A stretch of DNA of 63,082 nt, counting the filler, from Candidatus Woesearchaeota archaeon (GTDB taxonomy: Archaea; Nanobdellota; Nanobdellia; Woesearchaeales; B72-G16), in assembly GCA_003650545.1 (NCBI GenBank). It is 17 parts of 17 records of this genome, joined end to end, with 100 filler letters (N's around TTAATTAATTAA, not from the genome) between each part and the next. Parts side by side here need not be neighbours in the genome. Positions count along the whole stretch, not along the records: positions 26,996 to 30,639 come from QMQO01000095.1; 16 more parts are not named here. One strand, written 5' to 3'. Positions 1,708 through 59,731 of the stretch are shown here, piece by piece. The notes beneath the pieces were generated by a model. The model was not told the DNA's origin. It ran no database searches and saw only the letters and a list, made by a program, of their open reading frames with translations. Positions within the stretch are counted from its first letter, which is position 1, and each line of letters opens with the position of its first letter. A program made the translations under genes and the position numbers.

Positions 1708-3086
1708 ATGAAACATTATGTACAAACTTCTTCAAGAGAGAATATACTTACGAAATATCCTGTACTTTCGGATTCTATTTTGCTACACAAAGCACCCGAG
1801 GGAGCATATCTAATAGAACGACCACGTATAAACGAATCATCAACTAGATCTTCCATGAGATACGCATTAATAAATCAAGATGCTCTTAATCTACTTCTTT
1901 TATGCAATGGAACACGAACAGTCAAGGAAATTTTGGAAATTTTGTCAAAAAATGAGCAAGAGTTTAAAGGTAATTTAATTTTTATTTTAAAAGCATTGAA
2001 TTTTAACCATATTTATCTGCTGGACTCTCCATTGGCTAGAGGCAAAGATTTTTCAAGTATTATTAAAGGAAGTTACAAGTACACTATTCCTTTACATCTA
2101 GTCATTGAATTAACTTATAAATGCAATTTTAGGTGTAAACATTGTTATGCTTTTTCCTCATTTAATTACAGTGAAGAAATTAAAACAGATGCATTATTAT
2201 TCATTCTTAAAAAATATGCTAAAGCTGGTTCTAGAATTGTTGAATTAACGGGGGGAGAGCCTCTTCTGCATAGTAATTTCCTTGACATCCTTGAGTTTTG
2301 TTGTAAAAACTTTCTCATAGTAAGTGTAATTACTAATGGTTATTATATTGATAGAAATTTAGTCAAAATATGTCAGAAGTATAGAGATGTTATTAGCTTT
2401 AGCATAACTCTATTTAGCGATTCTTCCGATTATCATGACTATTTTACTGGAGTTTCTGGCTCTTTTGACAGAGCTGTGAATAGTATAAAAATGTTAGCAG
2501 ATGCTAAAATAAGAGTGAGAGTTTCAACGTGTATTACACCTCAGAATTATACTAAAATTGAAAATGTTATTGAACTTGCAAAAAAATAGGTGCTTCGTCC
2601 TTTGCTTACTCTCCGATATTACCCTTTGGAAGAGCTTCAAGAAGCTATAATACTCTTAAACTCTCATCTAATCAAGTAAAAATGCTTATGAGAAAAGTAA
2701 AAAAGCTACGGCGTAAATTTAGAGGATTTATACAAATAATTCCTGAACATATTGTTGAAAGTTTCATTAATATTGGATGTGGTGCAGGGCGAAAATCTAT
2801 AGTTATCAATCCTAAAGGTGAAGTAAGACCTTGCATAATGCTACCTTCCACTTATTTATATATGGGCAATATTTTTCGTGATTCTTTAGAGAATATTATG
2901 TTAATATTTAATGACCTACATCTTACATTTCCTAATAAAGATGTCTGCAAAAAATGTTCTCATTTAGCGTTTTGTTTAGGGTGTATTGCCAGAGGGATTA
3001 AAATGTGGGAGTCATTGAAAGATGAGTGTACTTGGGGTTGTAAAATGAATTTACGTGCAAAAATATTTGGTGATTCTAATGGGTGA
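1708..3086 (+). CDS. PqqD/RRE + radical SAM + SPASM peptide maturase, interrupted by a -1 frameshift at an A7 run (2580-2586)
   Basis: RRE-like INQDALNLLLLCNGTRTVKEIL; CNFRCKHC; ELTGGEPLLH. The -1 frame continues IGASSFAYSPILPFGRA with no stop into the SPASM region CGAGRKSIVINPKGEVRPC...CKKCSHLAFCLGC (ORFs 1696-2589 and 2682-3086). Confidence 0.9.
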
Positions 3087-3784
3087 TTATATTGTTATAT
3101 TTGATAGTGTATCGAAGTTTTATCATAGCAGGCTTGGTGTTAATGATATTTCATTTAGAGTGAATTGTGGTGAAATTGTAGGCTGTATTGGTCCAAACGG
3201 TGCTGGTAAAACTACTATTTCTAAGTTGATGGCTGGATTACTTAAGCCTACTAGAGGGATAGTGAAAGTTTTTGGTGAAAATCCATTTAATAATGTTAAT
3301 ATTAAGTTTAGAATTGGTTTACTATTGGATTTTGATGGTATGTATGATGAACTCACAGTATATGATAATCTTCTTTTTCTTAGTAGAGCTTATAACTTGG
3401 ATGCTGGAAGATCGAAGTTGAAGGATTTACTTAGACAGGTTGGTTTAGAAGATGAATTGGATACTATTGTTGGTAAACTTTCTAAGGGTATGCGGAGAAG
3501 ACTTTCTCTTGTTGGAGCTTTAATTCATGATCCTGAGCTTCTAATTCTTGATGAACCTCTTGTTTTCTTGGATTTAACTTGGCAGGAAAGAATTAAGCGT
3601 TTAATTAGATCTTTGAGGGATGAAGGGAAGACTATTTTTATAACATCTAATGATTTGATGTTAGTTGATGATTTAGCTGAGAAAATTATATTGCTAGATA
3701 AGGGTAGGCTTGTTATTCAAGGTGTTAAGAGTGAGATTAAAGAGATGCTTTCTAGAGGTGTTGTTAAGGTTACATTTTTTGATG
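3079..3784 (+). CDS. ABC transporter ATP-binding protein (export/immunity type), truncated at contig end
   Basis: Walker A GPNGAGKT, signature LSKGMRRR, Walker B LILDEP; GGTGA RBS before ATG 3079; overlaps the rSAM stop. Confidence 0.93.
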
Positions 3785-3884
3785 NNNNNNNNNNNNNNNN
3801 NNNNNNNNNNNNNNNNNNNNNNNNNNNNTTAATTAATTAANNNNNNNNNNNNNNNNNNNNNNNNNNNNNNNNNNNNNNNNNNNN
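3785..3884. other. Artificial contig linker (N44-TTAATTAATTAA-N44), first of 16. The others are at 7660-7759, 11530-11629, 15398-15497, 19242-19341, 23075-23174, 26896-26995, 30640-30739, 34356-34455, 38042-38141, 41727-41826, 45354-45453, 48964-49063, 52547-52646, 56098-56197 and 59632-59731
   Basis: Identical 100-nt spacer with stop codons in all six frames; composition and gene content change abruptly across each one; contig lengths decrease monotonically. Confidence 0.99.
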
Positions 3885-4971: not shown

Positions 4972-6615
4972 TTATTTAATAAGTTCAATCGTAACTGAGT
5001 GGACAGTTGAGCTTGCACTTGCACTTGTTACTAATTGTATGCAAACTCTATCTCCTGCGGATAAGGTGATGTAATCTGCGTTATCGGAGTTTGTTCTTGA
5101 AGAGTCAGAGACCACTACGCTCAGATCGGTAGACGCTCCATTTACCCGTAAAGTATATGTAAAGCTTTCCCCAGTTCCAGGTGCAGAACCAGCGATCACG
5201 TACATGTTGCGTGCAACACAATCGAATGGAACTACATATTCTGCATTCGCTTCTACTGTCGCCTGTCCCGATAATCCTATATATACTGTGCTATCTGCAG
5301 ATACAGAGGTGTAAGACGTAAACGTTAGCATGGCGAAGGTTATTTGCGAATGATATGGTTCACCGTTCTTTATGATCGTGTTTTTAGCATTAGCTCCAGC
5401 ATCGTCGTTAATGTCAACCGTATTACCTGTAAAGAAAGCGTCTATATGATTAGATGTTGTATCTGAGCTGCTGGTCAAATTTAAAGCGTTATCGTTATTT
5501 TCAAGCAGTATGCCAAATATCCAATTGTCATAAAAATTAATTCTGATTCCTGTGGTAGCTCCTGCAACCTCTCCCCCATAGAATTTGTTTGACGACCCAA
5601 TATCAATATCTATTCCTATGCTATTTGCGACATTCGTAGTTATCATTACATTATAGAAGTTATTTTGGTTCGCTTGACCACTACCTTTAACACCTGTCAA
5701 TTTTATACCATATTTGCAGTTCCAAATTTTAACATTCTCTATATGATTTCTAATGGCTGGGGTTGATGTCCCCCCATAATTGCCATCGAGAAAAATTGCA
5801 TACTCAAAATTTTCAATAAGCAGATTGATCAAAGTGCTTTCTACAAGGCCAGTTGCGTTAATAGCAACTTGATCGCTATCACCCTTAAGCCTTAAGTTCG
5901 CTATACCTCCATATTTCGTTCTAGATGTTGGATCGGCAACTCTAAAGATTCCGCATGACTGCCCAGTTGCATCTAATATTGTTGAGTCTTCTCCTTCACC
6001 AACATACCAAACCCCAGTTTTCCAATCTATCACAGAAGTAATCGTGAACGTACCTTTCAAGACTATTTTCCCCCCAGTAGCTGGAAGAGCATTAGAAGCA
6101 GCTTGTATTACTGCACTTGCGTTTGAACCGTCCACTCCACCAGCATCCCAAGCTCCACCATACTGAATCTGACCGCTCGTAGTGTTCTTGGCATAAACAT
6201 CGTTTGTTGAAGTGTCATTCCGGATGATGAATGTTGCGGTCTGTTCTGGATATGCAAGGACATCTGTTCTGTTCTGCAATACTCCAGACAGGTAGGTGTA
6301 CCAGTGCATACCAGTAATGTTCTCTGCTTGTAGTTGTCCAGACCATAGTTCTGTTGTGAATGGGTTTCCAGTATATCGCATTTTGAGTTTCTGTTCCAAT
6401 TCTTCTAGACTAGAGACTCCGTAATTCTTTTCTAGAAATGATTGGAGTTCTGTCTGTTTTTCTTCTAGTTGGGTGAGTCTTTCGGATAGAATGAGGTTTG
6501 TATTTTCTAGTGTGTTTATTTGGTATGCGAGAAATGAGAGGGAGAGCATGAATGTGAGGAAGAAGGCGAGGAATGCTTTCATGGAGAATTTGATTTCACG
6601 TTTAGAATCCGTCAT
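4972..6615 (-). CDS. Membrane-anchored spike/adhesin with a pectate-lyase-like parallel beta-helix
   Basis: N-terminal TM plus coiled coil; tailspike-like entry motif NASAVIQAASNALPATGGKIVLKG; Asn/Ile/Gly beta-helix repeats; C-terminal beta-sandwich. Confidence 0.7.
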   Translation of the reverse strand: MTDSKREIKFSMKAFLAFFLTFMLSLSFLAYQINTLENTNLILSERLTQLEEKQTELQSFLEKNYGVSSLEELEQKLKMRYTGNPFTTELWSGQLQAENITGMHWYTYLSGVLQNRTDVLAYPEQTATFIIRNDTSTNDVYAKNTTSGQIQYGGAWDAGGVDGSNASAVIQAASNALPATGGKIVLKGTFTITSVIDWKTGVWYVGEGEDSTILDATGQSCGIFRVADPTSRTKYGGIANLRLKGDSDQVAINATGLVESTLINLLIENFEYAIFLDGNYGGTSTPAIRNHIENVKIWNCKYGIKLTGVKGSGQANQNNFYNVMITTNVANSIGIDIDIGSSNKFYGGEVAGATTGIRINFYDNWIFGILLENNDNALNLTSSSDTTSNHIDAFFTGNTVDINDDAGANAKNTIIKNGEPYHSQITFAMLTFTSYTSVSADSTVYIGLSGQATVEANAEYVVPFDCVARNMYVIAGSAPGTGESFTYTLRVNGASTDLSVVVSDSSRTNSDNADYITLSAGDRVCIQLVTSASASSTVHSVTIELIK

Positions 6616-6682
6616 GGCTGTTCATTTATGTTTTCTGTTTTCTCATATTTAAAATTTTAAAGGTTTTACTTAAGAAAGTTAG

Positions 6683-6770
6683 ACATGGGGAGCGGAGCCA
6701 TATTCCCCATGTGTCCACTAAAGGCATTTTGGGGGCGCCCTAGCACATATTCATTACACGGCTCCGCATC
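6683..6770 (-). ncRNA. Candidate structured small RNA (pseudoknot or switch)
   Basis: GC-rich island in an AT-rich intergenic gap. 9-bp stem 6683-6691/6704-6712 whose loop (6692-6699) is complementary to 6760-6767; a further G-U-containing stem in between; TTAAATA box at 6791-6797 on the minus strand. Confidence 0.45.
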
Positions 6771-6824
6771 AAAGAAGTATAATCTTTTCATATTTAAGTT
6801 TTAAGATAAAAAAGAGGGAAAGTT

Positions 6825-7298
6825 TTAGGTTATCCATACGTCTATATGGAAGGTTCCAGCATGCTCTGTAACGTCACTGCTTATCGTCATTACTATTTTG
6901 ATGGTGAATTTCATGGTTTGCGGGCTGTTAATCTCGTAAGATGTGGTTGGGTTGGATGGTGTGAGCTTTGCGACTTCCACGTTTGAATCATCCAGTATGA
7001 CGATTTCTAGGTTCTGGAAATCTGAAGGTTCTGTTACGTTTAGTCTGAAGTTGATTGTGACTTTTCCAGTCTTATAGGCGGTTACTTTCAAGATGTTCTC
7101 ATAGACTTTAGCGTATGTTTCTCCAGCCATCAAAGTTCCCAAATCATACGGGTTACCGTTCCATGATGCGGTTCCGATCGGTTTAACGGTATAATTAAAT
7201 GTTGCAGTATAGATTTGGATTGCTCTATCAATCGCTATTGTTACAAGGAGACAGAGGGAGATCAGTATGAGGATTTTCAGTATTGCTTTTCGGTTCAT
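6825..7298 (-). CDS. Membrane-anchored beta-sandwich protein, hypothetical
   Basis: 157-aa ORF with an N-terminal hydrophobic helix and alternating beta pattern. Confidence 0.55.
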   Translation of the reverse strand: MNRKAILKILILISLCLLVTIAIDRAIQIYTATFNYTVKPIGTASWNGNPYDLGTLMAGETYAKVYENILKVTAYKTGKVTINFRLNVTEPSDFQNLEIVILDDSNVEVAKLTPSNPTTSYEINSPQTMKFTIKIVMTISSDVTEHAGTFHIDVWIT

Positions 7299-7385
7299 GT
7301 CTAAAAAATTGAAAATAGGTGATTTTTAAAGCTAACTCACTAAAAAATGGATATTTGCCGAGCTTTTCTGTATAGAGTTTTAGGG

Positions 7386-7613
7386 TTATTTCCGCAATTC
7401 CCTAAGCCTTAAAGCTAGCCTTGCCCTTTGACCGATCTTCCCAGGTTTCTTAGCGTCTTCACGCATAATGCTAACCTTTATGGTTCCCCTCTCCGTGAAT
7501 CCCTTTTCTCCATATCTTCGATAGACGCTTCGCCTATAGGCTCCTGGTTTCTTGATTGCTTTTTGAATCCAGTATTTTTTGCTTCTTCTTGTTCTCCTTC
7601 TTCCCCTACTCAT
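7386..7613 (-). CDS. Small basic DNA-binding virion protein, SSV1 VP2-like
   Basis: WIQKAIKKPGAYRRSVYRRYGEKGFTERGTIK...LALRLRELRK closely follows SSV1 VP2 as recalled (WVQKAIKRPGRVHRYLMRLYGKRAFTKDGDIK...LAKRLKRM); AAGGAG RBS. Confidence 0.75.
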   Translation of the reverse strand: MSRGRRRTRRSKKYWIQKAIKKPGAYRRSVYRRYGEKGFTERGTIKVSIMREDAKKPGKIGQRARLALRLRELRK

Positions 7614-7759
7614 CTACATTAACTCCTTTTTATTTTTTCCTATAAACAACCCTATAAGCNNNNNNNNNNNNNNNNNNNNNNNNNNNNNNNNNNNNNNNNN
7701 NNNTTAATTAATTAANNNNNNNNNNNNNNNNNNNNNNNNNNNNNNNNNNNNNNNNNNNN

Positions 7760-10700
7760 CCGAGGGGTACCATGACATATATATTCACATAGACAGAGCT
7801 GACAAAATAACCGAAGACAACGAAAACAACAATAAATTTTACAATACCGTCGCCGTTAGTTCGGCTCCCGACGCTATTAATGACCTCGCAGGCTCGGCGA
7901 CAAGCGCAATGGAGATAGATTTAAATTGGCATGCCACCGGGGATGACGGATATACGGGAGATTTGAATAATTCAACTTTTACTATTCAATATACTTCAGT
8001 CACTGCCTGGGCCCAGAGTGAAATCAATTGGAGCACAGATACAACCGGCGTTCCTTCTTATGTTTACACGGTTGACATAGCTACCACAGGAGTAGCGGCT
8101 CAAAGTCAGCGTTTTTATAGACAAGAGAATTTGTTGGCTAATACCACTTATTATTTTAGAATATGGACTCATGACGATTTTATTTCTTACAGCGCCCTTT
8201 CAAACGGAGCCACCGTTTCCACTCTGGCAGAGCCTGTAATTAGCACGCAGGTTTATAACGTCTTTTACACAAGTGTCACTCTTAATTGGGCGGCTTTGCC
8301 TCTTTCTCCGCCCTCTTCCACTTGCGAGGGATATAAAATTCAGGCTTCAACCGCGCCGGATTTTACGGGAATATTTTATTCTTCTTCAACCCTGGACGTA
8401 AAATTAAGCACCTTAACAATCAGGGGACTTACGGTAAGCACCACGTATTATTTCAGAGTAGGCAGCTTGAATTGGACAGAAGAACCTAATTATATTTTAT
8501 CCGGAAGCACCTGCACAATGTCGCCTGTGCCCGACACGCCGCCGATTGAGCCTTATGTCTCTAATGTGCACAAATCAAACATAACTGTAGATTGGACGGC
8601 AAACAACCCGGACAATGGCTATATTTTGCAAGCTTCGACGGCTTCCGATTTTACCGGAACCGTATCTTCTTCTCAAACCGCTGATGGTACAGCCACAAGT
8701 TTGACTGTTTCTGAACCAGCTTTGCACACCAACACTATTTATTACTTAAGAGCGGGTGCTATATGGGGCTCAACCACCTGGTATGCGCAGACCTTATCCA
8801 GTTCGACGTTAGCTGAATCTGTTGCTTCAGTTCAATTTGAGGAAGTTTTTATAACGAGTATTTCCGTTTCATGGCCAGTTTTGCCGCAAACGCCGTCTTC
8901 TTCAACTTGTGAGGGTTATCGTTTAGATGCTTCAACCTCTTCTGACTTTTACGGCACAATCTTCTCAAGTTCAACTCCCTCTGTGAATGTGGCCACTCTT
9001 ACCGTTACCGGGTTATCTCCTAATACCACTTATTATTTCAGGATAGGCACCCTTAACTGGAATTCAGTTGCTAATTATTTATTGGCGGGTTCCACGTCAA
9101 CTTTAGCTAACCTTCCCGGTCAAGAATCTCCGTGGCTTATCTCAAATTCAAGCTGTTCAATCACCGCTCAGTGGACGGCGGGGGACCCTGAAAATCCAGG
9201 CGGCACAAACTATATCCTTGAAGCATCTTCAACCAATTTTTCCGGCGGAACCATTCTTTCTTCAGCAACTTTCAATCTTCAGGCGGAGGTTTTGGGATTG
9301 ATGTCCAATACCACTTATTATTTGAGAACTATTGCAGTTAATTGGCAGGATATTAAGACTTACGGGCAGGTAATGGGTTCGACTTCCACTTTGACCAAAC
9401 TGGTCGAAGATGCTCAGTTCTATCGAGTTAATATTACCAGCGTGACAGTAAACTGGAAAGAATTTCTAACCAGTCCGTCTTCTTCAACTTGCTCGGGATA
9501 TATTGTTCAAGCTTCCACCGCAAGTGACTTTTCTGGTGAAATATTTTCTTCTTCCACGCTAAATGGCGTAACACCTTCAACTCTTACCGTTAAAAACCTT
9601 TATTCGGAAACCACATATTATTTCCGGGTCGGAGCGTATAACTGGAATTTTGTTCCAAACTATTTTGCGATGGGTTCCACCAAAACCAAAGTTGCTGTTC
9701 CGCCTCCTGATTTATCCATTAACAATTGGGATATAACTTTCAACCCGACGGAAGCCGATTTTGGCTGGAATGTGGATATTTCAGCCGATGTGCGAAATCT
9801 TAGCAATGACTTTATGGAGGAGTTGACGGAAAAGCAGGAAACCGGAGCCACCGGTTTTTTAATACAGTCAAATCAATATTTAGCTCAAGGATTTGTGGTT
9901 TCAGAAGACCTTAGTATTTTATCTGTGGAAATGTGGTGTTATGATTATGGAAGTACGGGAGATATGACAACCATTACTATAACGACAGGCACAACCGATA
10001 TTCCAAGCACAGGCGCAGAAATAATAGCCTCCACTAAAAACACGGTATCAACCGAGTATGAATGGGTTAAATTCAAATTCAATGGCCCTGTTCGTCTTCC
10101 GGTTCTTCCAGCTGGCGATGCTTATTGGATAATTGCCAAAAATTCGGAAAGCCCCAGTAATGGCTGGGTTTGGAAGGCCCAGGAAAACACTAATCCTTAT
10201 ACGCCAGCGTCCTCTGCCTTCAACGATGGCGAAGGAACATCATGGAACAATGGTGGGAACGACGATCAAATGTTCAGGGTTTATCAGAGCAGTAATATAG
10301 TGGTTTCATTTTACGATGGCGATCCAGACGATGGCGGAACCTTGATAGGCGTTTCAACCATAGCCGCTCTCAATACGAACCAGACGGAAACGGCGGTTTT
10401 AAGTTGGACGGCCACTTCTCCGGAAGCCAACCGGGATATTTACGCCTATATTGACAGGGCCAACGATATAGGGGAAAGCGATGAAACGAATAATAAAGCG
10501 TATAACACAATAGCGATAAGTTCAGCTCCCGATACTGTCAGTGATTTTTTTGCTTCGACTAACAGCACAACGGATATAGACCTTGAGTGGACTGTTACCG
10601 GAGACGACGGATACACCGGAGATTTAAATAACGCCGAATTCATAATTCAATACACATCCAGTTTACCCTGGGCCGAGGGTAATTCATGGGATCCAGAAAG

Positions 10701-20691: not shown

Positions 20692-21126
20692 TCATCCTAC
20701 ATTTCCAACTAGTTCTCGTGGATCAAGTACCTTGAGCCCCTTTATTCTGCGATAAGCCTTATCAACTGATATTATTGTTTTGTCATAAAGTAGAGCTGAA
20801 GCGGCATGAAGAGAATCAAAGTATGATAAACCATACCTATTTCTAAGTCTAGATGCCTCTATGAGGATGCTTGATGTTAATGGTACTTCGTCAAGATTCT
20901 TCATCAATCTAAACGCCTCTATATCCTTACGTATAACTTCTTCGTTATAACCTTTTGACCTAAGTATAAGCTCATACTCCATGTAGGCGGAAGTGGGTAC
21001 AGCTACATTCACTAATTCGCCATTTACTATTCTAGTGAAGATCATTGAAGCTATCCTATGTAGTTTGTCTATTATGTTTACATAAGCTATAAGCATATCA
21101 AACTCTATTATGGGCATGGATCTCAT
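20692..21126 (-). CDS. vapC: PIN-domain toxin (VapC)
   Basis: PIN pattern with YGLSYFDSLHAASA...IISVDKAY; overlaps the antitoxin gene. Confidence 0.88.
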   Translation of the reverse strand: MRSMPIIEFDMLIAYVNIIDKLHRIASMIFTRIVNGELVNVAVPTSAYMEYELILRSKGYNEEVIRKDIEAFRLMKNLDEVPLTSSILIEASRLRNRYGLSYFDSLHAASALLYDKTIISVDKAYRRIKGLKVLDPRELVGNVG

Positions 21127-21355
21127 CTGCTATTAATTTATCTGCTTCGCCTTCAATTTTATCGTAGACGATATTAGGGTCACTATACTTACCCTTCAAG
21201 TATTTACTAGGATCCTTAACAGCTCTAACAATAGCAATCTTCTTCTCAACATCTACGTCCCAAATAAGTATATCCCCTTCTTCAATTCCTAGTTCTTTTC
21301 TAACATTTGCAGGGATAGTTGTTAATCCCTTGCGTGAAACCTTACTTACAGCCAT
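21098..21355 (-). CDS. vapB: AbrB/MazE-family antitoxin (VapB)
   Basis: SKVSRKGLTTIPANVRKELGIEEGD. Confidence 0.88.
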   Translation of the reverse strand: MAVSKVSRKGLTTIPANVRKELGIEEGDILIWDVDVEKKIAIVRAVKDPSKYLKGKYSDPNIVYDKIEGEADKLIADEIHAHNRV

Positions 21356-26844: not shown

Positions 26845-26996
26845 CTACGCCCTCCCCCCTATTAAATTAGTTGAAAATTTATTACTTAAATATTCNNNNN
26901 NNNNNNNNNNNNNNNNNNNNNNNNNNNNNNNNNNNNNNNTTAATTAATTAANNNNNNNNNNNNNNNNNNNNNNNNNNNNNNNNNNNNNNNNNNNNG

Positions 26997-27245
26997 TTCT
27001 ACCATGAGATAGTCTTAGAGACAACAAGGGAAGGAGAAGAAATAGACCTAGCAACACTCTACAGGGCCATAAAGCTTTGGAAACAAAACCCTGTCATAGG
27101 CGGAAAATCAAGCATAGGCTTCGGTAAAATCAAGATAGAATACGAGTTCCCGAAGAAGGTGAGCGATAAACCATACCTAGAGTTCATAGAAAAGAATAGA
27201 GACAGGATAAAGGAGGTACTCGACAAGCTAAGGGATAGGCTATGA
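26997..27245 (+). CDS. csf2: Type IV CRISPR Cas7-like Csf2, C-terminal part; missed by the ORF track
   Basis: FYHEIVL...AIKLWKQNPVIGGKSSIGFGKIKIEY...YLEFIEKNRDRIKEVL; RAMP Gly-rich loop; ATGA overlap with the next gene. Confidence 0.8.
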   Translation, partial: FYHEIVLETTREGEEIDLATLYRAIKLWKQNPVIGGKSSIGFGKIKIEYEFPKKVSDKPYLEFIEKNRDRIKEVLDKLRDRL

Positions 27246-27907
27246 GCTATGTTCCATTGAAGATAACGTTTAGAATGGAGACACCAGTAGCCCTAGGGTT
27301 CCCGTGGATAAGCTTCGATGGTCTAGTACTCCACGTTCTCCTACGTGAAAGCCTAGGCGAGAAATACTATTATTTACCGACAAAGACGCCCATCGAATAC
27401 ATTATAAAGAAACTAGATGTACCAATGATACATGACCCTCCCCTCAAAAAGTGGAGGGACTTGTATGTGGCAAGCGTGAGTATCATAAATGGCCAACCAT
27501 TTGTTTTCCACTACTTCAAGAGAGGAGACTTCAGGTTTCCTTCAGGTAAGATTAGGCGTGGATCTGGTTTCTTCAAGGACTTCTACTTGAAGATAACCTA
27601 TGTCCCTGTAAGAGAAGTAGTCTTCTACGCTACAGGTGATCCAAGAGAGCTTGCAAGAATACTGGGCAAGGTGAAGGCCCTTGGAAAGGATAGGAACATT
27701 GGATTCGGCTTCATAAAAGAAGCGAGAATAGAGGAAGTAGACTACGAGGCAGGCCTAGTATGGAACAATAAGTGCATGAGGCCCATACCAGTAGAATACC
27801 TCAAAGAATACGAGGACGCAGCATACCTCGCTTATAGGCCACCGTACTGGGATAAACGCAACATAAAGCTATGCGGGGTGCCCTTCACCAAATGCGTGTT
27901 GAAGTAA
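27242..27907 (+). CDS. csf3: Type IV CRISPR Cas5-like Csf3
   Basis: LKITFRMETPV..ISFDGL, VFYATGD, G-loop LGKDRNIGFG, MRPIP and C-terminal YRPPYW. Confidence 0.82.
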   Translation: MSYVPLKITFRMETPVALGFPWISFDGLVLHVLLRESLGEKYYYLPTKTPIEYIIKKLDVPMIHDPPLKKWRDLYVASVSIINGQPFVFHYFKRGDFRFPSGKIRRGSGFFKDFYLKITYVPVREVVFYATGDPRELARILGKVKALGKDRNIGFGFIKEARIEEVDYEAGLVWNNKCMRPIPVEYLKEYEDAAYLAYRPPYWDKRNIKLCGVPFTKCVLK

Positions 27908-28623
27908 AAGTAGACAGGGAATGGCTTGAAAAATGGAGGAACTACTTCACAGAATACTATGATATAGGAGGCGTTGAGGAAAAAGTAAGAGAAGCAATAT
28001 CGTTTACAAAGCTCTATATAAGAGACTCTATAGTGGCCGTCAGCGGTGGCAAGGACTCGATGACAATGTTGCACATAGTGTACAATAACATTTCACATGA
28101 TATAACGGTTTTCCATTGGGATCACGGGCCATGGCTTATGCCACGCCACATAGAAAACGAGATACTGGAAAACATAAGAAAGGTGGCTCCTAAAGCCAGG
28201 CTTGTTGTTAAAAGATATGCTTATGGTGCAAACCCTAGGTCGAGAATAGACTATGTCAAATGGTATAAGGCTTTCTTTAGGACGCTTGAAGAAATAGGGG
28301 CAAGGCATCACTTGCTTGGCATAAGGGCCGAGGAGTCGGGCAACAGGAGGGCCAGGGGGAGCATAGTTAGGAAAAGGAAATGGATAGAAGTATACCCTGT
28401 CTACTACTTCACATGGCGGGATATATGGGCCTATATCTTTAAACACAATGTACCAGTACCGAGAACCTACTTCAAGTACGCTAAAATGCTTGGATGGAGC
28501 AGGGCTAGGCTAACAACATTCCACGACCAGGAATTCATGAAGTACGGTTCACCAAACATAGACTCAATAATACTCTGGAGAAACAAGAGTATTATGGTAG
28601 ATAGCAGCCGTAAAGTGCTATAA
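27871..28623 (+). CDS. cysH: PAPS-reductase-family (CysH-like) protein associated with type IV-B CRISPR
   Basis: PP-loop VSGGKDS, GIRAEESGNR, YPVYYFTWRDIWAYI; overlaps csf3 (alternative start 27892). Confidence 0.88.
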   Translation: MRGALHQMRVEVKVDREWLEKWRNYFTEYYDIGGVEEKVREAISFTKLYIRDSIVAVSGGKDSMTMLHIVYNNISHDITVFHWDHGPWLMPRHIENEILENIRKVAPKARLVVKRYAYGANPRSRIDYVKWYKAFFRTLEEIGARHHLLGIRAEESGNRRARGSIVRKRKWIEVYPVYYFTWRDIWAYIFKHNVPVPRTYFKYAKMLGWSRARLTTFHDQEFMKYGSPNIDSIILWRNKSIMVDSSRKVL

Positions 28624-28954
28624 CCTTCCAGATGATGATATCCTTTTCTGATACTCTGTTTGTTTCTTGTCCTCTAACAGGTTTTCTTAATGTGATGATG
28701 TAGATGACGTCGGTCTCATGAAACTCATAGAGTTTGTTGCTCGGTTCAATTCTTACTCCAATCCTTTCAAGGTACTTGTTTAGTAGGTCTATTGTTGCCT
28801 GGTGGCGTATATAGCACTTGACCTCGGCATCATATTGTATTTTATCCTCAGCGATTTCTGACAAAAACGTCTGCAAACTGATCGGCTTTGCGTAAATGGT
28901 CACGTCACGTTTAAAGATGTTAAGTGGCAAAGCATTAAGTAAGATGATCCTCAT
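28592..28954 (-). CDS. DUF1874 (STIV B116) family protein, AcrIII-1/Crn2-like ring nuclease
   Basis: LLNALPLN...CYIRHQATIDLLN...DVIYIITLRKPVRGQE follows the recalled DUF1874 pattern LxNAxxxNM...S/xIGHxxT...D...RxxEG; 120 aa; GGTGA RBS. Confidence 0.75.
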   Translation of the reverse strand: MRIILLNALPLNIFKRDVTIYAKPISLQTFLSEIAEDKIQYDAEVKCYIRHQATIDLLNKYLERIGVRIEPSNKLYEFHETDVIYIITLRKPVRGQETNRVSEKDIIIWKVIALYGCYLP

Positions 28955-28966
28955 TGGCTTTCACCG

Positions 28967-29731
28967 TTATAACGTGTCATATAGTACGAGGTCTTCGCTA
29001 ATAATTACACGTCTAACATAGTCTCTTTGAATTGATGGAAATGCTACAACATTAGAGTTCCCAACTCTTCTAATCTTCACATACTTTATATCAAACTTCT
29101 CGATGTTACTACAATCAATGATAGCGTACTCGTAGCCGTCGTAGATATAGACGAACGTTGGTATGCTAGTCTTGTAGTATTTTTCAACATAGCACTGTAA
29201 TACCGCTTCATCAAGGTCTCTTTTGTCTTCGCTTACTTTTTCTCTACACTCACTGAACTCTTTAGCAACATAGTAGTCTCCAACATCAGGGCTACTAGCA
29301 AGCAATAGTTTTCCAACACGATAGTAATGGATAATGAATCTCGCTAACTCTTTAACACCATATTCTGGATTACCAAGCTCATATAATGGTGTAAAGTCAA
29401 TAACATATGCATAAAGTTTCGCTCTTAACAGTATCACAGCAATTTCTTCGTCTTTGCTTATCGCTGATTTCACGACTTCAGTAAATTCAATTGGCTCTCC
29501 AGCGAAGAGGTCTATAACAAGTTGTTTAATATACTCGTTGTTTGGTTCAACATACTGTATTTTATAATATTTACTGTATTCATCAACATCAGCTTTAAAC
29601 TTGTTTATTGCCTTGTTCAAGTCAGTATAAATCTCGTACTCTCTTCCTGTCTCATCCTCCCTTATGAGAACATACAAATCAAAAAGATATCTTGTTTCAA
29701 GATTTTTATATGTTTTGACTTGGATTTGCAT
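28967..29731 (-). CDS. Hypothetical protein co-oriented with, and 12 nt upstream of, the DUF1874 gene
   Basis: 254-aa ORF; TTTATAA box at 29783-29789 on the minus strand. Confidence 0.7.
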   Translation of the reverse strand: MQIQVKTYKNLETRYLFDLYVLIREDETGREYEIYTDLNKAINKFKADVDEYSKYYKIQYVEPNNEYIKQLVIDLFAGEPIEFTEVVKSAISKDEEIAVILLRAKLYAYVIDFTPLYELGNPEYGVKELARFIIHYYRVGKLLLASSPDVGDYYVAKEFSECREKVSEDKRDLDEAVLQCYVEKYYKTSIPTFVYIYDGYEYAIIDCSNIEKFDIKYVKIRRVGNSNVVAFPSIQRDYVRRVIISEDLVLYDTL

Positions 29732-30137
29732 GGGTTTTCCACCCGAGCGGATATTCTGTATATACTGTATATCCAGAGGGAGTTATAAACCTGTCGCCTC
29801 TTCACTATTAAAACTCATTTCACCGTGAAGACTGATTCATGTAAAGAGAACCTCCTTCTCTACTGGAACCCACTCTAGTGGAGCGGAAGTTCAAACTTAA
29901 GTTTGACAAAAAACACTCTTCACCACAACATAACCGTCTCCATCGGAAAGTCAAACACAAGTTTAACTTTCTCCATCAACCACCTTCTTTTCCTCTGGAG
30001 CAACTGGAGCACACCAGAGTGGGACACATCTTATAAAATAAAATAAGAAAGGTAATATAACAGGAAACAAGAGAAAAAGAGCCCGCCAACCCCCCAGTTA
30101 AAGACAACAAAAAATAAAAACGAATGGGAAAAAAGGA

Positions 30138-30428
30138 TTAGGCTTGGTAGACTTTAAAGAAGCCTAGTTTCTGAAGCAACTCTTCAACATCGTAGATACT
30201 ATATTCTTGAAATACTCCAGCAGTTATTACTTTTGTTTCTACACCACCGCTATCCTCGTGTGGTATTGAAAACTGTCTTACGAATATTGAGTGTAGATGA
30301 TAGTCATAGTAGCCTTCGCTAGTTCTTGCCTCTACTATGACTACGAGGTCTTTTTTAGCAATCTCCGCCTTCTCAATCCACTCTTTTAATTCTTTTTCGA
30401 GATTTCTTAATTCCATTTCTTGGGACAT
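30138..30428 (-). CDS. Small acidic hypothetical protein with its own BRE/TATA promoter
   Basis: 96-aa ORF; AGAAAAGTATATAAG at 30466-30480 on the minus strand; T-rich tract downstream. Confidence 0.65.
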   Translation of the reverse strand: MSQEMELRNLEKELKEWIEKAEIAKKDLVVIVEARTSEGYYDYHLHSIFVRQFSIPHEDSGGVETKVITAGVFQEYSIYDVEELLQKLGFFKVYQA

Positions 30429-30739
30429 GTTTCCCGACCCCAGTCTATACTATAGTCTGAACCCCCTTATATACTTTTCTATATCACCCCTCCAATACTT
30501 TTTCAAATAGCCGATTGTAAATATCGTATGTAGTCAGATACTTTGAAATAGTCGAATGACTCTGCTAGTTTGTAATCACCCTTCAAATACCATTCGACTA
30601 CCAGAAAGATGTTGCAGATTTTTGGTTCTGCGTTGCAGANNNNNNNNNNNNNNNNNNNNNNNNNNNNNNNNNNNNNNNNNNNNTTAATTAATTAANNNNN
30701 NNNNNNNNNNNNNNNNNNNNNNNNNNNNNNNNNNNNNNN

Positions 30740-59631: not shown

Positions 59632-59731
59632 NNNNNNNNNNNNNNNNNNNNNNNNNNNNNNNNNNNNNNNNNNNNTTAATTAATTAANNNNNNNNNNNNN
59701 NNNNNNNNNNNNNNNNNNNNNNNNNNNNNNN

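Follow-up and report, generated by a model that had tools for sequence, protein, structure and literature searches.

Three overlapping genes of a type IV-B CRISPR-Cas cassette lie in the window, by which we mean the whole analysed stretch of 63,082 nucleotides from the Candidatus Woesearchaeota bin G000 (assembly GCA_003650545.1). They are located at the beginning of one contig of this bin, C95 (3,644 b, window 26996-30639), and are as follows:

26997..27245, plus strand: 3' fragment of csf2 (type IV Cas7), its last 82 codons and the stop codon TGA (27243-27245)
27242..27907, plus strand: csf3 (type IV Cas5), complete, 221 aa, PADLOC Csf3_0_IV E 7.8e-45
27871..28623, plus strand: cysH-like gene (CasCysH), 250 aa, cysteine-free, Pfam PAPS_reduct E 1.6e-14, passing the curated threshold

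An earlier interpretation of this stretch (the sequence-only reading) had placed here, at these coordinates, three overlapping genes for a Cas7-like C-terminus, a Cas5-like protein with a G-loop, RPIP and RPPYW, and a member of the PAPS (3'-phosphoadenosine-5'-phosphosulfate) reductase family. All three were recovered by profile searches. The csf2 stop and the csf3 start overlap in the ATGA at 27242-27245, and csf3 and the cysH-like gene overlap by 37 nt. The csf2 fragment, read in frame +1 from 26997, contains NPVIGGKSSIGFGKIKIEY and matched the PADLOC typeIV_Cas7 model Csf2_0_IV with E 1.6e-15 over profile positions 231-317 of 329, versus E 1.8e-4 for the best type III Csm3 model. Csf3 contains the motifs LGKDRNIGFGF, MRPIP and YRPPYW. 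Its score with the NCBIfam model cas5_csf3 (E 3e-19, 69.6 bits) was under the 140-bit cutoff.

The window consists of 17 contigs of about 3.4-3.8 kb, ordered by falling length and connected by the joiner N44-TTAATTAATTAA-N44, so that 32 N runs mark 16 joints (for example 3785-3884, 7660-7759 and 59632-59731). Genes adjacent across a joint are thus not genomic neighbours. The joint that precedes the cassette is:

26896..26995, no strand: artificial joint N44-TTAATTAATTAA-N44; the contig with the cassette begins at 26996

The 5' end of C95 falls inside csf2, and therefore the Cas7 fragment reflects a contig cut rather than a truncated gene. Because the locus opens at a contig end, csf1, cas11 and most of csf2 are absent from the window. 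No other Csf2 match was found in the whole bin (133 contigs, 1.64 Mb, estimated 85% complete), and csf1 and cas11 were likewise not found there.

The missing part was looked up in relatives of the locus. A search with Csf3 over 5.8 billion proteins gave 91 relatives at E <= 1e-3, and the named ones come from metagenome-assembled genomes (MAGs) of Thermosphaera, Fervidicoccaceae, Sulfolobales and Nitrososphaerales. The best locus in species-representative genomes was L002, on the 28,169-b contig JAGGXK010000014.1 of a Desulfurococcales archaeon MAG (G001). The Csf3 of L002 is 96% identical to that of C95, and the two loci share 91.6% DNA identity over 1,592 nt. The operon order in L002 is csf1-cas11-csf2-csf3-cysH, where PADLOC detected Csf1_0_IV (E 5e-17) and Cas11_0_IV (E 9.1e-20). 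Its full-length Csf2 reached E 3.3e-67 on the type IV model versus 1.6e-11 for the best Csm3 model, a hidden Markov model (HMM) ranking that supports the IV-B call.

At least 210 related stretches were found in a metagenome scan, of which 80 were kept, one being C95 itself. Gene architecture was counted over L002 and the other 79 loci, with at least 1.9 kb required as upstream room and more than 750 nt as downstream room. Upstream of csf3, csf1, cas11 and csf2 were present in 45 of the 45 loci with room; cysH was present in 61 of 62 loci and adjacent or overlapping in 59. In the upstream position, where cas10 or cas3 had been named as evidence for another type of locus, none of cas10, cas3, dinG or recD was found across the loci with room, and the upstream genes of L002 are those of Csf1 and Cas11. 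The order csf1-cas11-csf2-csf3-cysH is described as the defining architecture of IV-B (PMC7038947, PMC8175902). Since 45 of 45 relatives share the upstream genes, the subtype is IV-B, as had been proposed before. The ratio of nonsynonymous to synonymous substitution rates (dN/dS) between C95 and L002 was 0.05 for the csf2 end, 0.08 for csf3 and 0.11 for cysH, so the three genes are kept by selection. Four cysteines of Csf1 are invariant in 35 sequences, and by eye the canonical PCNA-binding motif was not seen in the archaeal Csf1 C-termini. The flanking open reading frames (ORFs) of L002 that were scanned with PADLOC, Pfam or PHROGs, a scan that left some small ORFs outside, showed no cas-related family. 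At another locus, L010, a second PAPS_reduct ORF (2-628, Pfam E 7.4e-9) was observed upstream of csf1, which may be either a paralogue or the tail of an adjacent cassette.

The CysH-like protein was analyzed in more than one way. The translation of the C95 gene has no cysteine at all, and no conserved cysteine was seen across 41 CysH-like sequences taken from IV-B loci of archaea, bacteria and viruses. In the same 41 sequences the SGGKDS PP-loop is invariant, and a GxRxxExxxR motif and a number of aromatic positions vary little or not at all. The AlphaFold2 model (predicted local distance difference test 85.6, predicted template modelling score 0.84) matched in Foldseek the tRNA thiolase TtuA, the PAPS/APS (adenosine-5'-phosphosulfate) reductases (CysH), CysD, FAD synthase, LarE and the ATPPase domain of GMP synthetase. 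The probability was 1.00 for TtuA, CysH, CysD, LarE and the GMP synthetase domain, at a template modelling score of about 0.5, and all of these are PP-loop adenylating enzymes. The best PDB profile match was the ATP sulfurylase subunit CysD (E 3.1e-15), and the CysH/PAPS-reductase models of NCBIfam stayed far under their cut-offs (for example 32.5 versus 154 bits). The SGGxDS signature and the Rossmann-like fold of the PP-loop ATP pyrophosphatase superfamily are both present, and the PP-loop together with the fold matches therefore makes the protein a PP-loop enzyme. PAPS reductase carries its catalytic cysteine at the C-terminus in an ECGLH-type motif. That cysteine is absent here, by which a PAPS reductase (EC 1.8.4.8) is ruled out; a protein without cysteine cannot perform PAPS reduction or DndC-type sulfurtransferase chemistry. 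The protein would most likely cleave ATP at the alpha-beta bond and adenylate a substrate. Consistently, PMC8175902 describes CasCysH as devoid of the catalytic cysteine and predicts that it acts as an ATP alpha-hydrolase, in agreement with the C95 protein.

We also examined the DNA that carries the cassette. Elsewhere on the L002 contig (L097) lie genes for two coat protein paralogues of the SIRV2 type (Sulf_coat_C, PF12193, E 1.6e-9 and 4.9e-15), a Hjc resolvase, a glycosyltransferase, a ribbon-helix-helix regulator and an 1,834-aa protein, together with many genes without a family. A tblastn search with one of the coat proteins matched 42 Rudiviridae records, the identity being about 27% and the coverage 93-97% of the query. 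The major capsid protein of the SIRV2 type that marks Adnaviria is thus encoded on this contig, and from its genes the L002 contig is a rudivirus-like (Adnaviria) genome without a close deposited virus relative. Within the 28-kb contig, the cassette occupies the stretch 1.4-4.6 kb from one end. A search for inverted terminal repeats was negative, so the contig may be incomplete.

Csf3 relatives were absent from 50,697 deposited phage and archaeal-virus records; in IMG/VR, no relative was found with the single protein and 8 distant ones with the alignment. Among 351 species genomes of the G001 class only one has the cassette, versus the at least 210 metagenome stretches. Its flanks are highly varied, with 384 ORFs falling into 296 clusters. 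When 132 cluster representatives were scanned, 100 had no Pfam family at E <= 1e-4, and the other 32 included tyrosine and SSV-type integrases, a resolvase, Hjc-like nucleases, PriX primase, MCM, ParA, a VirB11-like ATPase, TnpB, an STIV B116-like protein and a Cas4-like nuclease. In 4 further loci the cassette adjoins relatives of the 1,834-aa protein, and in 2 loci relatives of a 453-aa protein of the L002 contig. The boundary between cassette and flank was resolved on C95:

28587..28588, no strand: recombination breakpoint, where the DNA homology to L002 stops, 36 nt before the cysH stop

In the public runs X1 and X4, other contigs match the cassette up to exactly 28587 and then continue with an L002-like flank. 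A shared breakpoint with different flanks indicates that the cassette recombines between backbones.

The remaining part of C95 contains three ORFs:

28592..28954, minus strand: 120-aa ORF, weakly STIV B116-like (Pfam STIV_B116-like E 0.02, below the cut-off)
28967..29731, minus strand: 254-aa ORF, no family match in PADLOC, Pfam, NCBIfam or PHROGs
30138..30428, minus strand: 96-aa ORF, no family match in the same four collections

The 120-aa ORF also matched phrog_5063 (E 2.4e-5) and, by BLASTP, the B116-like protein of locus L076 (E 5e-4), and its family adjoins the cassette in four other loci (L034, L046, L061, L063). PADLOC detected no defence or Cas family in these three ORFs, and a repeat scan of C95 revealed no CRISPR array. 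The sequence-only reading had stated that no cas1, cas6, dinG or array follows the operon; none was found, and the statement holds for the remaining ~2 kb of the contig only.

Evidence for a host came from a CRISPR array that targets the cassette. The target is located in csf2:

27078..27118, minus strand: protospacer in csf2, the protospacer being 27078-27115 and the flanking AGG 27116-27118

When contigs of four public runs were compared, 27078-27115 was seen in contig ends of run X4 to be flanked at either side by the repeat CTTTCAATTCTTTTGTAGTTTTAT. Two genomes of the G001 class have arrays of exactly this repeat, namely G747 (39 copies) and G748 (70 copies), and the repeat was not found in bin G000 or in G001. 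Spacer 35 of G748 (44 nt) matched C95 in 37 of 38 bases (E 7.6e-14 in a local database) and matched L002 more poorly (24/26). A second G748 spacer gave a weak match to the virus-like L002 contig (28/32 bases, E 0.004). The G748 array is chromosomal and has a cas6 gene beside it (E 2.1e-32). On the strand identical to the CRISPR RNA (crRNA), the triplet flanking the protospacer is CCT. Crenarchaeal type I-A systems use the motif CCN, and the CCT flank agrees with this motif. These results demonstrate that a host CRISPR array targets the csf2 of the cassette. Near the csf2-targeting array, a region of G748 (L104, G748:C5:36000-52000) contains a viperin-like radical-SAM gene (pVip E 3.3e-23), HerA-NurA and a CARF-PIN-like gene, and looks like a defence island in a Thermoproteota genome.

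Crenarchaeal-type arrays also appear in 5 of the 80 related loci, at positions where their close relatives read on without a break. The stretches concerned are:

L021: 64-1495 and 4129-5080
L026: 14-976
L025: 2794-2935
L019: 1117-1206
L056: 3-97

The joins cut csf2 or cysH mid-gene. In L021 the arrays abut a truncated cysH and the DNA upstream of csf1, and an array-bearing, cysH-less IV-B variant was considered for this locus; it was rejected, since relatives such as L047 and L031 run uninterrupted at the same points. L025 and L026 are 99.87% identical and yet meet the same repeat at different points, and L019 and L056 show the same pattern. The five junctions are probably assembly joins at spacer/protospacer identities, which would imply frequent targeting by hosts; real recombination at these sites is possible.

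The bin to which C95 was assigned was then compared with this evidence. C95 has a guanine-cytosine (GC) content of 40.4% and a tetranucleotide first principal component (PC1) of -0.0245, against a GC of 33-35% and a PC1 of about +0.01 for the bin core. Csf3 was found in none of 400 other genomes of the phylum of the bin. Composition and spacer evidence together make a Thermoproteota archaeon the more likely host and the binning doubtful, and C95 was probably mis-binned into the DPANN (Woesearchaeales) bin. Could the cassette instead be a chromosomal gene set of a DPANN (Woesearchaeales) archaeon rather than mobile cargo? C95 was binned with a Woesearchaeales genome, and the supplement of PMC7038947 lists an IV-B locus of Aenigmarchaeota (DPANN). 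The composition unlike the bin core and the 0/400 count in the phylum speak against such a gene set, as do the nearest cassette, which is in a Desulfurococcales MAG, and the csf2-matching spacer, which is in a genome of the class of that MAG; we consider it very improbable. A decaying remnant without function is still harder to believe. Only the 3' half is in the assembly, but the truncation coincides with the contig end, the ORFs are intact with the low dN/dS given above, and the architecture is invariant in the relatives.

Some further observations concern the bin and the window. Along the window, 2-kb bins vary in GC between 31% and 48%, a spread suggestive of a mixed bin. Contig C13 (L093 = C13:13000-32999) carries a 205-repeat array with the repeat CTTTCAATATTCTTTTGAAATGCAG, adjoining a complete type I-A set (Csa3, Csa1/Cas4, Cas1, Cas4, Cas6, Csa5, Cas7, Cas5, Cas8a, Cas3' and Cas3''). 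Since C13, like C95, is a compositional outlier of the bin, another organism may be its source. On C37 (L094) the bin has a second array, with 27 repeats of 37 nt, and the same region contains at 2378-3325 and 6386-9674 a ShosA-like gene (PADLOC E 1.4e-58) and genes for an SMC/LmuB-like ATPase and an IetA-like ATPase, possibly further defence genes. On another contig of the window (20692-21355, minus strand), two overlapping small genes resemble by eye a PIN toxin and an AbrB/SpoVT-type antitoxin (VapBC-like).

In conclusion, the C95 genes are, with high confidence as to identity and context taken jointly, the 3' half of a five-gene IV-B cassette carried by a mobile element, viral or otherwise, of hyperthermophilic Thermoproteota. 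The archaeal mobile element foreseen in the sequence-only reading is supported by the archaeal MAG relatives, the rudivirus-like nearest carrier, the mobile genes in the flanks and the host spacer.

The novelty attached to it in that reading was overrated. IV-B is reported to be present 'to a lesser extent' in Archaea (PMC7038947, 2020), whose supplement includes IV-B loci of Thermoprotei, Thermococci, Aenigmarchaeota and Methanosarcinales MAGs, and virus-borne archaeal IV-B was described in 2023 and 2024 for a Methanoperedens virus (bioRxiv 10.1101/2023.08.02.551345) and Fuxivirus (PMC10848311). The C95 cassette is therefore a genuine IV-B but not a new kind of system. Like the IV-B system of Mycobacterium sp. 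JS623 (7JHY; PMC7937560, PMC8175902), as described there, it has csf2, csf3 and a cysH-like gene (and, judging by its relatives, csf1 and cas11), is borne by a mobile element, lacks an array, Cas6, adaptation genes, helicase and nuclease, and encodes a CysH-like protein without the catalytic cysteine. In contrast to JS623, whose system is on an actinobacterial plasmid, the cassette here belongs to a hyperthermophilic archaeon and a virus-like carrier, and its sequences lie very far from those of JS623: Csf2 matched 7jhy only with E 1.2e-4 as a single sequence, the archaeal profile giving no match at E <= 0.01. Fuxivirus ('Fuxiviridae', PMC10848311) is likewise reported as an archaeal virus with csf1-cas11-csf2-csf3-cysH and with a host spacer against cas7, here csf2. 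It is described as a head-tailed Caudoviricetes virus of hot springs that infects Bathyarchaeia and has a two-repeat mini-array (PMC10848311), whereas here the nearest relative sits on a rudivirus-like (Adnaviria) contig, with neither mini-array nor solitary repeat detected; the two systems were compared by description. The 'Thermoprotei archaeon' MAG loci (PMC7038947) share the subtype label and the class-level taxon, a likeness of names and labels only. The open literature gave no link of IV-B to rudivirus-like viruses or Desulfurococcales, a point on which the supplements of PMC7038947 and PMC10848311 may bear.

The best solved-structure match of Csf2 was the Pyrococcus abyssi IV-C1 complex (PDB 11FS, 11HC, 11HD; PMC13676074), with E 2.6e-13 against Cas7c as a single sequence and 7e-20 as a profile. 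Both IV-C and the C95-type cassette have Cas11. IV-C is described as chromosomal and crRNA-using, with a Cas10-like HD large subunit (PMC13676074), whereas the large subunit here is the small zinc-ribbon Csf1 and a CysH-like gene is added. A role of the archaeal clade as a bridge between IV-C and IV-B was considered and rejected: bacterial IV-B Csf2 also matches Cas7c better than 7JHY, so closeness to Cas7c is not special to the archaeal clade.

How the cassette may work can be proposed from its mycobacterial relative. By analogy to 7JHY (PMC7937560), Csf2 and Cas11 would form a filament that binds RNA, with Csf3 and the zinc-ribbon protein Csf1 as its caps. The mycobacterial complex is described as binding heterogeneous non-CRISPR RNA (PMC7937560). 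The cassette comes without an array, Cas6, adaptation genes, nuclease or helicase. With no array and no Cas6, it would have to load RNA that is made elsewhere, and crRNAs processed by the host Cas6 would be the most likely supply. The CysH-like protein would use ATP to adenylate a substrate alongside the complex, and the likely role would be that of a weapon of the mobile element, aimed either at the CRISPR immunity of the host or at rival elements. We put forward this mechanism of crRNA loading and adenylation tentatively, as an analogy.

Several points weigh against the interpretation, in its functional part as well as in the identity and context of the locus. The RNA loading and the role of the CysH-like protein are predicted from the Mycobacterium IV-B structure and from protein families, and the recombinant Mycobacterium IV-B complex is reported not to have loaded co-expressed type I-E crRNAs (PMC8175902). 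The placement of Csf2 comes from HMM and PDB rankings, and the completeness of the C95 copy is judged from its relatives. C95 itself carries no virus hallmark gene, the B116-like ORF being only a weak match, and no SIRV2-type coat gene was found on C95 or in bin G000. The 230 spacers of the bin's own arrays on C13 and C37 showed no match to the cassette, and against C95 and all relatives they gave no full-length match (15-22 nt at best).

Other uses of the same proteins have to be weighed beside this. The Csf complex might load host crRNAs or RNAs of the element and bind and silence the DNA of rivals in the manner of IV-A, with the CysH-like protein marking the target. Type IV-A is reported to act by repression resembling CRISPR interference in conflicts between plasmids (PMC12669027, PMC13676074), the cassette is carried by many unrelated mobile elements, and hosts of this class have large arrays beside cas6. 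But the cassette lacks both a helicase and its own array, gives no evidence of reading a protospacer-adjacent motif, and a search of C95, L002 and L097 with four repeats at <= 5 mismatches detected no mini-array or solitary host-type repeat. The negative result with type I-E crRNAs counts against silencing too, which we regard as doubtful. The complex might, on the other hand, soak up crRNAs or small guides that the CysH-like protein would then inactivate, by which the virus would escape type I-A and III systems. The cassette is virus-borne and lies close to a contig end in L002, host arrays target these elements including csf2, and the idea was already voiced for the Methanoperedens virus in bioRxiv 10.1101/2023.08.02.551345. 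The same type I-E result stands against it, and an anti-CRISPR of five genes was judged unlikely by Pinilla-Redondo et al. (PMC7038947); we regard such a sponge as doubtful to the same degree. A more specific form, in which the Csf filament would capture Cas6-made crRNAs by their shared 8-nt tag and the PP-loop enzyme would adenylate the RNA or a partner, so disarming type I-A and III, is less probable still.

Among the widespread CRISPR-Cas subtypes, IV-B alone has no known function, and in 2026 this function was still called unclear (PMC13676074). The known range of its occurrence is not changed by the C95 cassette, and the added value is modest: a rudivirus-like carrier, a link to a host spacer and suitability for thermostable biochemistry. 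The clade is large, tightly conserved and from hot environments, its five-gene order never varies, and its carriers are archaeal viruses and other mobile elements. Its proteins are compact and probably thermostable, and a matching host repeat and cas6 (G748) are at hand for biochemistry. Were the crRNA-capture counter-defence true, IV-B would gain a function, as the first anti-CRISPR that has several subunits and loads RNA.

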